DNA of 64,000 bases from Candidatus Microgenomatus sp. (GTDB lineage Bacteria; Patescibacteriota; Minisyncoccia; UBA6257; GWB1-50-10). Shown in pieces: positions 12,171 through 26,053 of this stretch. A program made the position numbers and the translations under genes. Under the pieces are notes generated by a model. That model worked only from the letters and a program-made list of their open reading frames with translations. It ran no database searches and was not told the origin of the DNA. The stretch's first letter is position 1. Every line of letters starts with the position of its first letter. The stretch covers positions 8,934-72,933 of the forward strand of contig DYGI01000001.1 of the NCBI GenBank assembly GCA_020724805.1, in the 5' to 3' direction.

Positions 12171-14216
12171 CTACTTTCCGCCAATCATTTTCAGAAATTC
12201 CTTTTCGGTAACCGTTTTTACTCCGAGTTCTTTCGCCTTTTCTTCCTTACTCCCGGGGTTCTCTCCCACCACCACATAGCTTGTTTTCTTGGAAACGGAT
12301 TCCGACACTTCTCCTCCTGAATTTCGTATTCGCTCCTTTGCTTCGTCCCTGCTCAAAAACGAAAGCGTGCCGGTAAGTACGAATGTTTCCCCAGAAAATT
12401 TCGCTCCAGCTTTCGATGTTTTTTCGCCTGTTACTTTTACTCCCGCCGCGTCAAATTTCCCTAAAAGGGAAAGATTACGAGGCTCTCCAAACCACTCCGC
12501 CAAACTTGCCGCAACCACCGGGCCGATGTCGGGCACCTTTTCAAAATCTTCGCGCGAAAGTTTGGAATATTTCTCGGAAAACGTAGAGACCTTCCCGTCC
12601 CCTACCGGGAAGTTTTTTGCGAGTGCGCGTGCGGTTTCTTCGCCTACATGGAGTATACCCAAGCTGTAGATAAAACGCGGGAGCGTGACATTTTTTTTCT
12701 CCTCCACTTCGCGCACAATATTTTCCGCGGACTTCTTGCCAAAGCGCGGGAGCGCCGCGATGTCACCTTCTTGAAGCGTGAAGATATCTGCGGCGTCGCC
12801 GATAAGTCCCTCATCCAAAAATTTGTCTATTATCTTCGTCCCAAGACCGCGGATGTCAAACCCCGCACGCGAAACAAAATGGTAGAGCGATTCTCGGTGA
12901 CGCGCGGCGCATTTTGGATTGCCGCATCGCACGACCACGCCTTCTTTTGTGAGTGCGGAGCCGTCTACAGGACATTTTTTCGGCGCCTTAAATACCACCT
13001 CTTTCCCGGTGCGAAGATTTACGAGCACTTCGGTGATTTGAGGAATAACATCGCCCGCACGCGAGACGACCACCGTATCGCCTTTTTTCACCCCGAGACG
13101 CGTAATTTCATCGAAATTGTGCAGCGTGGCGTGTGTGATGGTGACTCCCCCTACATTCACGGGGCGCAGAAGCGCGACCGGCGTGAGCGCGCCGGTCCGT
13201 CCCACCTGCACTTTGATATCTTCGACCATCGTCGTTGCTTCGCGCGGTGAGAACTTATAGGCAATACCGCCGCGGGGAGCCTTCCCGATGATCCCCGCTT
13301 CGCGGTAAACGCGATTATTGTTCACGGTGATGACCACGCCGTCTATTTCATATCCCAATTTCTCGCGGCTACGCGTCCATTTTTCGCGAAAGGCGAGCGC
13401 CTCATCAAGTGACTGCGCCACCATGCCTTCCGGATTTGTTTTTATACCCCATGACCGGAGCGCGCGATATTCGGCGTCATGCGTAGGATAACTCGTGAAG
13501 TAAGAGGTTCCTTCGCCGGGAATGCTGTACGCATAAAAGTCCAATTTGCGGGACGCGGTCACTTTAGGATCAAGCTGGCGAAGACTTCCGGCCGCCACAT
13601 TTCGTGGGTTTGCATATGCTTTTTCTCCTCTCTTTTCCTGTTCGCGGTTCAGGCGCGCGAATTCTTTCTTTGTCAAAAACACCTCACCACGTACGGCCAG
13701 TTCTTTCGGGTAGTCACCATGTAATCGGAGTGGGATTGCCTCAATGGTTCTTAGGTTTACGGTGATATCTTCCCCCACAAGTCCGTTCCCGCGGGTCGCT
13801 CCTTCCACGAATATGCCGTCACGGTAGATAAGTTCCACCGCAAGACCGTCCATTTTGAGGTCACAATAGAAACTCCCGCGATACGGTTTCCCGAGGTAAT
13901 CTTCCAAACGTTTTTTCCACGCGCGGACATCTTCCTCGCTAAACGCGTCGTTCAGAGAATTCATTCTCAGGCGCTCGCCCCCGAAATGTGTCACTTTTTT
14001 GAATTTTGCAAGCGGAACGCCCGCCACCCGCTGCGTAGGTGAGTCGGGGGTTATCAGTTCTGGGTACTTTTCCTCAAGATTGGAAAGTTCGCGTTTCAGC
14101 GAGTCCAAAATCTCCGGCGACAGAAGATTTCTGTCCTCCACGTGGTAGGCGTAGCGCGCTTCTTCTATTTGTACGCGGAGCTTTTTGACGCGCTCACGAA
14201 TCGTGTTGAACTCCAT
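12171..14216 (-). CDS. ligA: NAD-dependent DNA ligase
   Basis: 681 aa; adenylation KxDG motif ([10 protein letters not shown]), OB fold, Zn finger Cys4, HhH and BRCT regions. Confidence 0.9.
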
Positions 14217-14220
14217 CTCA

Positions 14221-14643
14221 TTAGCGACCTCCTTGCGTAAGACTCATTTCGAGCGCACGCACCGTACGGCTCCCCGCGTCCACGCCGCTTCCCAAGAGAG
14301 AAACAGGTTCATTCAATGATTCTTGCGGTGGTATCGTAATGGTGGACGTTGCAGAAACTCCACTCGTGAACACCACAGGCGAAATAGGGTCGGCGGTAAC
14401 AAGCTCGCAAGGAAATCCGTCGCATTGGTCGGGGGTATATTCATAAAAATAGTAGTAGAGTGCGCGTTCTAACCCCGCATCGGCAGCGAAAATGGCGATC
14501 GTCGAATTCCCCGAATCCTGCGCATGCTCCACCTGATAATATGTGAGAAGCCCAGCCACCGCAGTGACGAGGAAAAGAACTCCCCCCATCATGACCACTA
14601 CCAAAAGCAATGCCTGACCTGATTGGCGAGAATTTATTGGCAT
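14221..14643 (-). CDS. PilX-like pilus minor component (N-terminal TM)
   Basis: 140 aa, N-terminal hydrophobic segment [24 protein letters not shown], location at end of pilin cluster. Confidence 0.4.
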
Positions 14644-15290
14644 ATTTCAATGATGGATTCCGGCACTCCAGGTGCTTCTACCGGCAATACGCGTGAACTT
14701 ACGGTGGTTTGAAGCCTCACTTCCTGCGCACTAAGCGCGGAGCCTCTCGGAACTACCCCCATAGTGATGGTGATGCGCCAAGGATTACACATATCCTCAG
14801 CCCCATCGCCATATTGCCGCACGAGAAAGGAAAGGTAGGAAACTTCCACCTCCGCCGCGGTAAGCGGTACCGCATCAACATTTCCCTCTTCCAGTCTGGT
14901 AATGGAACCGGATGCCTCATCGTATTCATACGTCACCAAGGCGCCACGATAGTTCGTGAATGTGAGAAAGTCATTTTCGAAATAGCACGGTCCGGACGGA
15001 TTCGAACCTCCCAGAAATTCTTCCTCACAAAAACGGTATCCCGTGCGCACCTCGCGCGCGATTTGCTCCAATACGTTCCCCGCGTTGTTGTTCACCGACA
15101 TAAGCATAGTGAGACGACGCTGATTCCTCACGGTATTCACGAACACGCCAACCGCGATGGTCACAAGAACAATGAAAACCCCCATCGCCACAATAAGCTC
15201 GGTAACGGTAAAACCGTCCTGCGGCACTATAGCGGTTTTGCCGGTAGGGCGCGCGCCACCGGGCGCATCAATTCTATCGCGGCCGTTCAT
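14634..15290 (-). CDS. type IV minor pilin (PilW-like)
   Basis: Prepilin motif G|FTVTELIVAMGVFIVLV; start moved to ATG (MNGRDRID...) inside track ORF 14634..15389. Confidence 0.5.
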   Translation of the reverse strand: MNGRDRIDAPGGARPTGKTAIVPQDGFTVTELIVAMGVFIVLVTIAVGVFVNTVRNQRRLTMLMSVNNNAGNVLEQIAREVRTGYRFCEEEFLGGSNPSGPCYFENDFLTFTNYRGALVTYEYDEASGSITRLEEGNVDAVPLTAAEVEVSYLSFLVRQYGDGAEDMCNPWRITITMGVVPRGSALSAQEVRLQTTVSSRVLPVEAPGVPESIIEICQ

Positions 15291-24227: not shown

Positions 24228-25336
24228 GATATGGGTAATGAATAAGGTTTGAGCGCAAGGCCAGCGGCAACGGCAAGTTCGTGGCTTAGGGTACGCATTG
24301 CGGGCTCCAATCCTTCGCTATACCGCACCTTCGCAAATGGCCTCGCCGCTTCGTGAGGAATTTTAAGCGCTTCGGCGCAGTATCGCTCGATGCCGAGGAG
24401 ATTTGCTCCTCCCCCCACCAACGTGAAACGTTCCACCGGATGCCCGAACGTGCGCTCATAACTTGCGCGCACGCGCTCACACTCACGTATTATAACATCC
24501 AAAAAAGGCAGAAGTGAGGTGGATAACTCAAATTCTCCCTCACTCACCATGAGTCCGCGACGACGTTTCAATTCCTCCGCGCGCCACGATGACACCCCAA
24601 GATTCCGCGCGATTGCCTGCGTTAAAGTTACCGCACCGTAATCAGCTTGGCCTACCGTACGCACCGTAGTGCCTTCGGTAACCACAATCGAGGTTGATTC
24701 GGCGCCAATGTCCACAATCATCATGTGACGGCTCGCGGGCGTGGTAATCGCACGCGCAAGAGCCGTATGCTCCACCTCCAATGCCTCGAGTGTGAGGCCT
24801 GCAGCGTGAAAGAGCTCACGATAGGTTTTTACAAGCTCATTCGGTACCGCAACAAGAAGAATGCGTTGGAATTTCCTTCCTTGTTCGTTCTCATACTCTC
24901 CGACTTTTTCCCACTCAAAGGTCACTTCTTTGACGGGCATCGGAATGAATCGTTGCGCTTGAAACCCGATGGATTTTTCGGTCTCCTCGCGCGTCATGAA
25001 TGGCATCTCAATAGGCACCGCGAATGAGGCAAACGCGGGCACGGACGCGATAACGCGCTTTGCTTTTGGCTTCACTTCGTTCAAAAGCGTTTCGAGGAGC
25101 GGCGCGGCGTCGCGTGCCGAGAGTTTTAATGAGCTCGATTGAACAACCGCGTTCGGACGCCGGAGATATTCCTTCGTAGAAAGAAGTCCATAGTTCTCAA
25201 GCGAAACAACGTCCCCCTTTCGCGAGAGCTCCACAAGCTTCAGCGACACCGTGCCGACATCCACTCCGAGCACGCGCCCAAAAGAAAAGAAATTCCTGAT
25301 ATCGGTGAAAAAATCCTTAACAAAACCAAGGTTCAT
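24224..25336 (-). CDS. pilM: type IV pilus assembly protein PilM (actin-like ATPase fold)
   Basis: 370 aa; LGVDVGTVSLKLVEL N-terminal actin-fold motif. Confidence 0.8.
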   Translation of the reverse strand: MNLGFVKDFFTDIRNFFSFGRVLGVDVGTVSLKLVELSRKGDVVSLENYGLLSTKEYLRRPNAVVQSSSLKLSARDAAPLLETLLNEVKPKAKRVIASVPAFASFAVPIEMPFMTREETEKSIGFQAQRFIPMPVKEVTFEWEKVGEYENEQGRKFQRILLVAVPNELVKTYRELFHAAGLTLEALEVEHTALARAITTPASRHMMIVDIGAESTSIVVTEGTTVRTVGQADYGAVTLTQAIARNLGVSSWRAEELKRRRGLMVSEGEFELSTSLLPFLDVIIRECERVRASYERTFGHPVERFTLVGGGANLLGIERYCAEALKIPHEAARPFAKVRYSEGLEPAMRTLSHELAVAAGLALKPYSLPIS

Positions 25337-25375
25337 CCCGCTTATTCTAACACGGTCGCGGTACTATATATATGT

Positions 25376-26053
25376 ATGTATGCGCTCATCCGCTTCGTAC
25401 AAAGTATCCTCTTTCCTCCGCGCTGCCTTTCTTGCGCGTTCCTCATTCCTCCCGAACCAAACGCCGCGATCTGCGCCAAGTGTCTTTCCCATATCCCAAT
25501 CCATGGAATACGCGTAGCGGCACCCCACGCGAAATATACGCTGATCGCCGCTACTTCATATGCGTCGAAGGAGGCTCAAACGCTGGTGAAAGCGTTGAAA
25601 TATGAGGGAATTTCCGCCGCCGCATCCGCAATGGCACTCGTTATTATGGCCGCCGCGCGCGAAACGCTGGAACAGGAACTTCTCACGAGAAATGGGTGGG
25701 TTATGGTCCCTATACCGCTTCACAAAAAGCGGGAATGGAAACGCGGATTTAACCAAAGTATGCTAATCGCTGAAGCCCTTTCTCATCACGACCCCCTGCG
25801 CCCCATTCCGATTGTGTCCGCACTTACGCGGGCGCGGCATACCGACACGCAGACCGAGAAACCAGATTACAAAACGCGGCGCGCGAATGTGGAAAACTGT
25901 TTTGAGGCGGCTTCCTTAAATGCCATATCCGGGAAAAAAATTCTTCTTATAGACGATGTCGCTACGTCCGGCGCAACCCTCGAGGAGGCTGCACGCGCCT
26001 TAAAATGCGCCGGCGCCCACCACATTACCGCCCTCGTTTTCGCAAAAGCATGA
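25376..26053 (+). CDS. comFC: ComF family phosphoribosyltransferase (competence protein ComFC)
   Basis: N-terminal FPPRCLSC...C zinc finger, C-terminal PRTase motif ILLIDDVATSGATL; start moved to ATG after pilM. Confidence 0.75.
   Translation: MYALIRFVQSILFPPRCLSCAFLIPPEPNAAICAKCLSHIPIHGIRVAAPHAKYTLIAATSYASKEAQTLVKALKYEGISAAASAMALVIMAAARETLEQELLTRNGWVMVPIPLHKKREWKRGFNQSMLIAEALSHHDPLRPIPIVSALTRARHTDTQTEKPDYKTRRANVENCFEAASLNAISGKKILLIDDVATSGATLEEAARALKCAGAHHITALVFAKA

Follow-up and report, generated by a model that had tools for sequence, protein, structure and literature searches.

Type IV pili of the Candidate Phyla Radiation (CPR; Patescibacteria) have been described with PilB, PilT, PilC, PilM and PilO and without the secretin PilQ, which is reported to be absent from these bacteria (PMC6744442). 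Published accounts combine such PilQ-less pili with widespread ComEC, DprA and ComFC, report ComEC in 86% of CPR genomes, and describe natural competence in CPR as dependent on comEC (PMC6744442; PMC9894109; PMC10633639). In cultured CPR bacteria, pili are essential for epibiotic growth and host attachment independently of competence (PMC10633639). Here we analyzed a stretch of 64,000 nucleotides (nt) from Candidatus Microgenomatus sp. (contig DYGI01000001.1, positions 8,934 to 72,933; the whole 64-kb stretch is referred to as the window), in which a pilus gene array of this type carries, between pilT and pilC, a 281-bp insert encoding a GIY-YIG nuclease of 94 amino acids (aa). Our analysis points to a standard CPR pilus array to which three small palindromic mobile elements, this insert among them, have very probably been added in the lineage of the window.

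Among small bacterial elements, the Correia elements of Neisseria and the Rickettsia palindromic elements are short, palindromic or bounded by terminal inverted repeats (TIRs), and present in many copies, and the Rickettsia palindromic elements insert in frame into protein genes. Members of IS200/IS605 carry a Y1 HUH transposase and subterminal hairpins, have no TIRs and generate no target duplication. Slx1, a GIY-YIG protein, is a structure-specific endonuclease. Dunin-Horkawicz et al. (2006, PMC1564403) assigned the UPF0213 protein BH0048 to the "minimal" prokaryotic branch of Slx1-like proteins and described the bacterial Slx1-like family as vertically inherited and repair-related rather than as mobile. 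A survey of CPR rRNA genes noted non-intron insertions that carry GIY-YIG and 23S_rRNA_IVP open reading frames (ORFs) and that "seem outside the context of homing" (PMC11270868).

The three putative mobile inserts of the window, with the parts of the first, are as follows.

19534–19814, minus strand: insert of 281 bp carrying the 94-aa GIY-YIG ORF (PF01541), with TIRs and a flanking repeat.
19530–19814, minus strand: GIY-YIG gene, 94 aa (PF01541, E 3e-15).
19796–19810 (TIR-L) and 19532–19546 (TIR-R): 15-bp TIRs of the GIY-YIG insert.
19810–19814 and 19529–19533: ATGAA repeat flanking the GIY-YIG insert.
16382–16455, minus strand: 64-nt palindromic element (16387–16450) with its flanks, in the leader peptide of minor pilin A, with a duplicated TTCAC.
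22626–22721, minus strand: ORF-less hairpin insert filling the 96-nt spacer before pilB (fold 22628–22716, −23.5 kcal/mol, z −2.35).

On the coding strand, the junction of the first insert reads pilT-TGA GGTC ATGAA TCCCGTGAGAGACA ... TGTCTCTAACGGG ATGAA GTTC (pilC), the 15-bp repeats being ATCCCGT[T/G]AGAGACA ... TGTCTCTAACGGGAT. The GIY-YIG ORF is the sole ORF of the insert and spans it from repeat to repeat. It opens at the first ATGAA, i.e. at the original start position of pilC, 281 bp from the present pilC ATG; the inverted repeats encode six residues at either end of its product (MNPVRD at the N-terminus and FLSLTG at the C-terminus), and its TGA overlaps the regenerated pilC ATG (ATGA). 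pilC is presumably still made, through translational coupling. The terminal A of the element and the duplicated TGAA would rebuild the ATG of the host gene. Because the element rebuilds the start codon, it could colonise the starts of essential genes in gene-dense CPR genomes without killing the cell.

To place the insert among relatives, 80 species-level loci were fetched with a PilC profile, and their ORFs were labelled by phmmer with the window proteins as queries. A GIY-YIG gene separates pilT from pilC in just 2 of the 74 related loci with both genes (L010 and L022). In L010, the nearest relative (PilC 93% identical), the GIY-YIG protein is also 93% identical; in L022 (PilC 71%), it is 36% identical and occupies the same junction with different, 20-bp TIRs. 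L095 (PilC 89%) retains a 5'-truncated copy that has lost the left end and the first eight codons, and L094 (PilC 87%) and L005 (86%) have no such gene, showing plain spacers of 47 and 23 nt, respectively, that end in a single ATGAA. The sequence-only reading of this DNA had offered a selfish insertion as one explanation for the gene and had proposed comparing gene order in relatives to see whether it is always present; the comparison, with 72 of 74 loci lacking it in an otherwise conserved array, bears that explanation out. By synteny, the GIY-YIG gene is a lineage-specific insertion and not part of the pilus.

Other small ORFs occupy equivalent positions. The pilT-pilC junction holds a PD-(D/E)XK ORF (PDDEXK_3, PF13366) in L009, L026 and L062 and a 23S_rRNA_IVP ORF (PF05635) in L025, and GIY-YIG genes lie at other junctions in L023 (pilin to pilD), L047 (pilC to pilin) and L073 (95-aa gene to pilB). 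These ORF-carrying inserts are bounded by clear inverted repeats of 10–20 bp, except in L047, which offers at best a weak match of 12 nt; arms of other element families read CCCTCACCC... and CGATGCGAATATACGAAT.... In L026, the same 18-nt ends (TGATACCAATATGCGAAT / ATTCGTATATTGGTATCA) occur three times within one pilus operon: around the PDDEXK_3 ORF between pilT and pilC, around an ORF-less 138-nt copy between the 95-aa gene and pilB, and, as a right end only, upstream of minor pilin A at the pilD-minor pilin A junction. A defence-system assignment of the GIY-YIG, PDDEXK_3 and IVS-protein (intervening-sequence protein) ORFs was also considered and rejected, as PADLOC returned only insignificant matches for all of them.

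The same element is found before unrelated genes. The GIY-YIG protein has more than 3000 homologues, many of them 94 aa long and 70–80% identical (Terrybacteria, Minisyncoccia and other Parcubacteria). Four homologue contexts place it upstream of DsrE, methyltransferase, Bac_transf and NTP_transferase genes, always with the same 4-nt stop/start overlap; the ends of the element are identical in all four (ATGAATCCCGTTAGAGACA ... TGTCTCTAACGGGATGAA), and each host gene starts with ATGAA. Across five protein-defined contexts, the 15-bp arms are identical, and in one copy the two arms differ by compensating substitutions (AGAGGCA / TGCCTCT). One metagenome-assembled genome (JBEKVQ01) combines an empty pilT-pilC junction (L038) with an element in front of a Bac_transf gene (L089).

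A metagenome scan for the right end (TGYCTCTAACGGGATGA) gave at least 120 loci and at least 127 right-end sites, with the left arm lying upstream in 113 of the matches listed; the counts that follow refer to these listed copies. Most of them (87 of 113) are ORF-less, with arms at 110–130 nt (mode 120) and about 124 bp from ATG to ATG; seven at 275–280 nt (about 281 bp) carry the GIY-YIG ORF, one of these (L183) holding it in inverted orientation between the same ends, and a few are of intermediate length. When the element was removed in silico, 94 of the 113 sites opened an ORF of at least 60 codons, and in 65 of 92 cases no possible start lay between the preceding in-frame stop (median distance 7 codons) and the junction ATG. 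The host proteins downstream fall into at least 81 clusters. One position covaries between the arms (A-T in 80 copies, G-C in 25, other in 4), and folding is much stronger in every one of the 86 short copies than in shuffled controls (median z about −6). Copies that share a contig resemble each other, and two copies occur on each of the single contigs L157 and L177. We thus find traits of a TIR transposable element, namely TIRs conserved among copies, repeated flanks with empty sites, and multiple unrelated loci; the family appears to be mobile, hairpin-ended, and either retained at or targeted to ATGAA start codons.

Three further ideas were tried and dropped. On viral contigs, seven matches to a 17-mer of the right end represented one unrelated conserved phage sequence with no left arm and were discarded. 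Targeting of leaderless promoters was not borne out, since a −10-like box stands 5–11 nt upstream at 23 of 106 listed sites, against 7 in a control window, which resembles ordinary gene starts. Translational coupling in the ORF-less copies was likewise set aside: only about 22 of the 87 listed short copies have their left ATG in frame with the overlapping TGA, so selection for coupling is not evident in this form. As a separate observation, L104 contains at 3600–4030 a tandem duplication of a 216-nt unit that consists of an ORF-less element and the first codons of the downstream gene.

Turning to the protein, the 94-aa product consists of the GIY-YIG domain alone, with no auxiliary domain, and matches the UPF0213 protein BH0048 (PDB 1zg2) by sequence (E 1.6e-8). 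An AlphaFold model (mean predicted local distance difference test score, pLDDT, 85.5) was compared with known structures by Foldseek, which returned 1zg2 (3e-4) and Slx1 (7.5e-4 to 1e-2) ahead of UvrC (1.1) and I-TevI (1.9); the model superposes on 1zg2 and on the nuclease domain of Slx1 (from Slx1-Slx4) with a root-mean-square deviation of 2.0–2.3 Å over 73 residues. Residues Y11, Y13, Y24, G26, R32, H38 and E58, which are of catalytic type, are invariant across 26 homologues. On its modelled fold, the nuclease is Slx1-like, i.e. of the structure-specific class, and not I-TevI-like.

Taken together, we tentatively suggest that this Slx1-like nuclease might be the mobility enzyme of an undescribed class of hairpin transposons, in which the 281-bp form is autonomous and the form of about 124 bp non-autonomous, insertion occurs at ATGAA and rebuilds the start of the host gene, and hairpins with PDDEXK_3 or IVS-protein ORFs are parallel solutions. 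The structure specificity of Slx1 would suit an enzyme whose substrate is the hairpin or cruciform that the repeats form. By recognising and cutting this structure, the nuclease would drive the movement of ORF-carrying and ORF-less copies alike. Only insertions at 'safe' sites would survive: a start codon that is rebuilt, a spacer between genes or a leader peptide removed by cleavage. A literature search found no description of a GIY-YIG miniature inverted-repeat transposable element (MITE) or of an element at the start codons of protein genes, which is not proof that none has been described.

Several points weigh against the reading of the inserts as mobile elements and of the nuclease as their driver. 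The element encodes no recognised transposase, and no GIY-YIG protein is known to perform strand transfer or to act as a transposase. GIY-type ends (ATCCCGTTAGAGACA...TGTCTCTAACGGGAT) are present as a single copy in the window, with neither further GIY-type ends nor IVS-type ORFs elsewhere in it, and the three window hairpins belong to different sequence families, so that viewing them as one phenomenon is an interpretation. The interiors of the listed ORF-less copies are almost all mutually unrelated (8 of 3655 pairs similar), a pattern uncommon among MITEs that would allow for a different origin. With regard to the flanking repeat, 74 of the 113 listed copies have ATGA before the left arm and about 86% have A as the fifth base after the right ATG; only this left flank and fifth base count as independent evidence, because GGGATGA on the right flank was built into the scan pattern. 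In the pilus loci, ATGAA stands on both sides of the window insert and once at the empty pilC sites of L005 and L094, a comparison weakened by the divergence of the spacers in these empty-site relatives. Mobility as such is well supported by comparison among loci, and no movement was observed.

We consider it unlikely that the hairpins act primarily at the RNA level, in the manner of rRNA intervening sequences, with stems that are cut by RNase III or tune translation or stability and with ORFs that are passengers of the loop and spread by an unrelated route. The rRNA insertions with the same two ORF types (PMC11270868) agree with such a role, as do the strong folding and covarying arms of all listed ORF-less copies and their position in transcribed spacers directly before start codons. 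Against it, the sense and antisense strands fold equally well, with no consistent difference between them, and hence give no strand-specific signal; Rfam yielded no match for the hairpins, the ORF-less copies or the structured pre-pilB spacers of relatives; and the conserved part comprises the extreme ends and the flanking direct repeat, a signature of DNA insertion. The inverted ORF between the same ends in L183 and the rarity of the ATG-to-TGA frame in the short copies point the same way.

Quite improbable, in our judgement, is a free-standing homing endonuclease gene, akin to the T4 seg genes or I-TevI, that spreads between pilT-pilC alleles by cutting and homologous repair, possibly via transformation. 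Its patchy presence at one locus within a clade would fit, and the best NCBIfam match of the protein is indeed the group I intron endonuclease model (grpIintron_endo), at 21 bits far under the cutoff of 56. A 94-aa protein without a DNA-binding domain or any other extra domain, whose fold matches Slx1/UPF0213 and for which I-TevI and UvrC are poor matches, does not belong with the I-TevI/Seg endonucleases. Moreover, allele-specific homing cannot yield at least 81 unrelated downstream gene families with ATGAA alone in common, nor do TIRs and abundant ORF-less derivatives accord with it.

The second insert of the window interrupts the leader peptide of minor pilin A. The empty site in L010 reads ATG AGA AAC GGG TTC ACG CTG (MRNGFTLVE), and the window protein reads MKDGFT[PHLCAMRRKAPSIQKLHKSAGFT]LVE, an in-frame insert that leaves the G|FTLVE cleavage site intact. 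TTCAC is duplicated in the window relative to the empty site, and a 17-bp inverted repeat at 16386–16452 belongs to the 64-nt element. Other small inserts lie at the same GFT motif in L005, in L025 (twice) and in one pilin gene of L032.

The third insert is the hairpin before pilB, of which a TAGT-rich motif at 22689–22719 (heptads TAGTGAC, TAGTAAC, TAATGAC and GAGTGAC) forms the left arm, and whose sequence is unique within the window. The sequence-only reading had taken the TAGT periodicity for a possible operon operator. The sequence is indeed non-coding, repeat-rich and partly palindromic, and it occupies a spacer, of which the array has few; nevertheless, an operator or promoter controlling the operon is highly unlikely. 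The nearest relative, L010, has an unrelated 25-nt spacer and no TAGT hairpin, and the spacer between the 95-aa gene and pilB varies from 0 to 352 nt across 70 species, with 0–9 nt in many relatives, so that pilB is normally co-transcribed with pilMNO. A consensus scan found no sigma-70-like promoter in the pre-pilB spacer. Long pre-pilB spacers are usually hairpins built of short tandem heptads, and heptad-armed hairpins of this kind appear sporadically at this and other junctions of distant relatives. Given its absence from L010 and the variable spacers, the TAGT motif is best read as a lineage-specific palindromic insert and not a conserved operator. The left flank of the IVS-protein insert in L025 resembles the TAGT arm at about 25 of 30 positions (manual count). 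Seven relatives (L009, L029, L038, L042, L043, L045 and L073) share another, apparently structured pre-pilB sequence (...GGTGCTCAATGTGGT...ACATTGGC ATG), in which the inner stem varies in length and, in L073, the GIY-YIG ORF sits in the loop of the stem.

Finally, it is scarcely credible that the nuclease serves the pilus or DNA uptake as a functional accessory, for example one that cuts incoming DNA and is placed for co-expression, as the sequence-only reading had also considered: the gene is co-oriented and translationally overlapped with pilC, next to pilT, in an array with comF and ligA, yet 72 of 74 related operons lack it, those of Brennerbacteria with PilC 86–87% identical among them, the same protein and DNA ends front DsrE, methyltransferase, sugar-transferase and nucleotidyl-transferase genes elsewhere, PD-(D/E)XK or IVS-protein ORFs replace it at the junction in other species, and the protein is predicted to be cytoplasmic, having no signal peptide or transmembrane (TM) segment.

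The array that received these inserts comprises the following genes, from the divergent comF to gatA.

25376–26053, plus strand: comF/ComFC-like gene, 225 aa (Pfam Pribosyltran and DZR_2), divergent from pilM with a 39-nt spacer.
24224–25336, minus strand: pilM, 370 aa (PF11104 PilM_2, E 4e-37).
23652–24227, minus strand: pilN-like gene, 191 aa; window protein without a Pfam match, position kept in 66 loci.
23074–23643, minus strand: pilO-like gene, 189 aa (weak PF04350 match, E 0.007).
22722–23009, minus strand: single-TM protein of unknown family, 95 aa, occupying this place in 65 of the 80 related loci.
20895–22625, minus strand: pilB extension ATPase, 576 aa (T2SSE, E 8e-120, and MshEN).
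19819–20889, minus strand: pilT retraction ATPase, 356 aa (T2SSE, E 2e-45; PilT-size protein).
18328–19533, minus strand: pilC platform protein, 401 aa (T2SSF, E 2e-54).
17854–18279, minus strand: pilin 1, 141 aa (N_methyl, KGFTLIEM).
17400–17840, minus strand: pilin 2, 146 aa (N_methyl motif), 37% identical to pilin 1.
16490–17392, minus strand: pilD prepilin peptidase (A24_N_bact and Peptidase_A24).
15898–16467, minus strand: minor pilin A, 189 aa, GFTLVE motif (N_methyl; orthologues in 62 loci).
14221–15901, minus strand: three more minor-pilin or pilus-tip-like genes of 174, 248 and 123 aa (weak PilV, ComGE and N_methyl matches).
12171–14216, minus strand: ligA, NAD-dependent DNA ligase (all NAD-ligase domains).
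11862–12149, minus strand: gatC, downstream of ligA.
10429–11859, minus strand: gatA, after gatC, the end of the co-directional array.

PilB, PilT, PilC, PilD, PilM and class III pilins are thus identified in the window by Pfam. The class III signal peptide (G|FTLxE) occurs in three window proteins (KGFTLIEM, SGFTLIEM and AGFTLVE) together with N_methyl matches. The gene list of the sequence-only reading proved real on ORF listing and Pfam/NCBIfam matches, with all genes on the minus strand except comF, and its two tandem pilin paralogs stand: pilins 1 and 2 share a conserved N-terminal GFTLIEM helix and have divergent, Cys-rich C-termini. Three details changed. comF, divergent as stated, lies on the plus strand and, following the JGI gene call, starts at 25376 rather than 25139; the ORF listed at 222 aa is a minor pilin of 189 aa; and the co-directional genes run on beyond ligA through gatC and gatA to 10429. 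Against the NCBIfam ComF model TIGR00201, the window comF scores 93.6 bits (model cutoff 233.55). A pooled Pfam scan of orthologues matched PilN (PF05137) in 10 members and PilO (PF04350) in 9 (best E 1e-8), the pool including 22 PilN-like and 12 PilO-like orthologues; the output does not identify the matching members, whose attribution to the two subsets we infer. The putative PilN and PilO assignments, weak for the window proteins themselves, are supported by these matches, and that of PilN also by position. Paralogy of PilN and PilO was considered and dropped, the hhalign comparison of the two profiles being not significant. The 95-aa TM protein had no match in Pfam, NCBIfam or PADLOC.

PilC has 1525 strong homologues, every named one of which is from Patescibacteria, with the closest in Ca. 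Brennerbacteria (86–93% identity), followed by Jorgensenbacteria and Paceibacterota. The order comF (divergent), pilM-N-O-(95-aa gene)-pilB-pilT-pilC-pilin(s)-pilD-minor pilins A–D-ligA-gatC-gatA is near-invariant across the 80 species-level loci: pilM, N, O, B, T, C, D and ligA are all together in 50 loci, a divergent comF lies ahead of pilM in 45 of 61, the order of the minor-pilin genes after minor pilin A is kept, and ligA follows immediately after the last minor pilin in all 63 loci that reach that far. The number of pilin genes between pilC and pilD varies from one (24 loci) through two (40) and three (3) to four (2). The 14-kb array is therefore a standard monoderm-type pilus locus of Patescibacteria (CPR; Ca. 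Brennerbacteria-like), with ligA and gatCA being merely the next genes of a compact, conserved, co-directional array. Among the relatives, L070 has at 11849–12658 a transposase-like ORF (read from sequence alone) between two pilin genes, and L042 has a duplicated pilO-(95-aa gene)-pilB segment.

A perfect TATAAT stands 5–11 nt before the ATG of minor pilin A in 51% of loci, of pilC in 28%, of the first pilin in 22% and of gatC in 23%. In the window, a −10-like TAGAAT ends 7 nt upstream of the pilM ATG (25337–25375), and TATACT lies 7 nt before minor pilin A (16468–16489). These motifs suggest internal promoters that would give leaderless or near-leaderless mRNAs; as they stand close before several starts, the "super-operon" is likely to comprise several units of transcription, each with a very short leader.

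No secretin, comEC, comEA or dprA was detected by Pfam in any ORF of at least 70 aa in the window. The lack of pilP and pilQ was remarked on in the sequence-only reading; no window ORF has a secretin domain, which agrees with the published CPR state (PMC6744442), CPR cells having no outer membrane. Both motor ATPases, PilB (T2SSE and MshEN) and PilT (T2SSE), are present as had been read. The further step from PilT and ComFC to a dedicated DNA-uptake pilus is not supported by the window: neither comEC nor dprA is in it, and the CPR pilus is needed for host attachment regardless (PMC10633639). The window alone cannot distinguish DNA uptake, attachment or both, and a secretin-less pilus with comF is already known CPR biology, which makes the operon itself ordinary.

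The 64-kb window as a whole holds 18 tRNA genes, and several genes outside the pilus array are of separate note. At 7448–8587 (minus strand) lies a 379-aa phenylalanyl-tRNA synthetase (PheRS) in which the class II catalytic core is fused to an FDX-ACB anticodon-binding domain; among solved structures it matches human mitochondrial monomeric PheRS best (E 3e-57) and bacterial alpha subunits less well (E 1e-37), and no pheT-like gene was seen within the window. A BNR/Sortilin-repeat protein at 26759–28036 (minus strand) ends in a Por_Secre_tail domain, for type IX secretion sorting, a system unexpected in CPR; a similar gene adjoins the pilus locus in L010, L060 and L070. A possible surface adhesin of 1476 aa, containing fn3 and InlB B-repeat-like domains, is encoded two genes from the pilus locus at 28204–32634 (minus strand). 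Two nearby GreA/GreB-like genes lie at 39911–40375 (plus strand) and 42175–42678 (minus strand), one of them full length and one with the C-terminal domain only.

These results alter the picture of the pilus little: a single secretin-less array is rigidly conserved in the Jorgensen-/Brennerbacteria clade, and annotators should not read the GIY-YIG gene within it as a competence factor. The wider interest lies in what appears to be a family of very small palindromic elements, widespread in CPR, whose members occupy start codons exactly and rebuild them; the long form encodes only an Slx1-type nuclease. If this nuclease does drive movement, it would represent a new enzymatic class in bacterial transposition and a very small, sequence-targeted insertion module, and would help to explain the GIY-YIG, GxxExxY/PD-(D/E)XK and 'IVS protein' mini-ORFs scattered in CPR genomes and rRNA genes. 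The window also illustrates how streamlined genomes tolerate selfish DNA, here occupying a start codon, an intergenic spacer and a cleaved leader peptide.

Compared with published CPR and monoderm pili (PMC6744442, PMC9894109, PMC10633639), the array has the same PilB/T/C/M/N/O/D proteins and pilins, no PilQ, a ComF-type link and collinear clusters. This clade differs in the 95-aa TM gene between pilO and pilB and in ligA-gatCA directly downstream, and we see no essential difference. The inserts resemble the rRNA intervening sequences with small ORFs (PMC11270868) in their hairpin shape, optional GIY-YIG or 23S_rRNA_IVP ORF and patchiness, whereas here they occupy spacers and start codons of protein genes instead of rRNA helices and have flanking direct repeats. 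With the UPF0213/Slx1-like minimal nucleases, the encoded protein shares a single domain of about 95 aa, the sequence and fold match to 1zg2, and the catalytic Tyr/Tyr/Arg/His/Glu; it differs in that its ORF is framed by TIRs, recurs at many unrelated loci and has ORF-less derivatives. Like IS200/IS605, the element is very small, with ends that would act via DNA hairpins and short sequence-specific targets, whereas the presence of TIRs and a flanking repeat and the lack of a Y1 HUH transposase ORF exclude membership. Like the Correia and Rickettsia palindromic elements, the inserts are short, TIR-bearing or palindromic and multicopy, and the 64-nt element shares the in-frame insertion. Unlike those elements and MITEs, the family studied here has a nuclease rather than a DDE transposase as its partner ORF, combines hypervariable interiors with a conserved length (about 124 bp), and has the start codon as a target that it regenerates.

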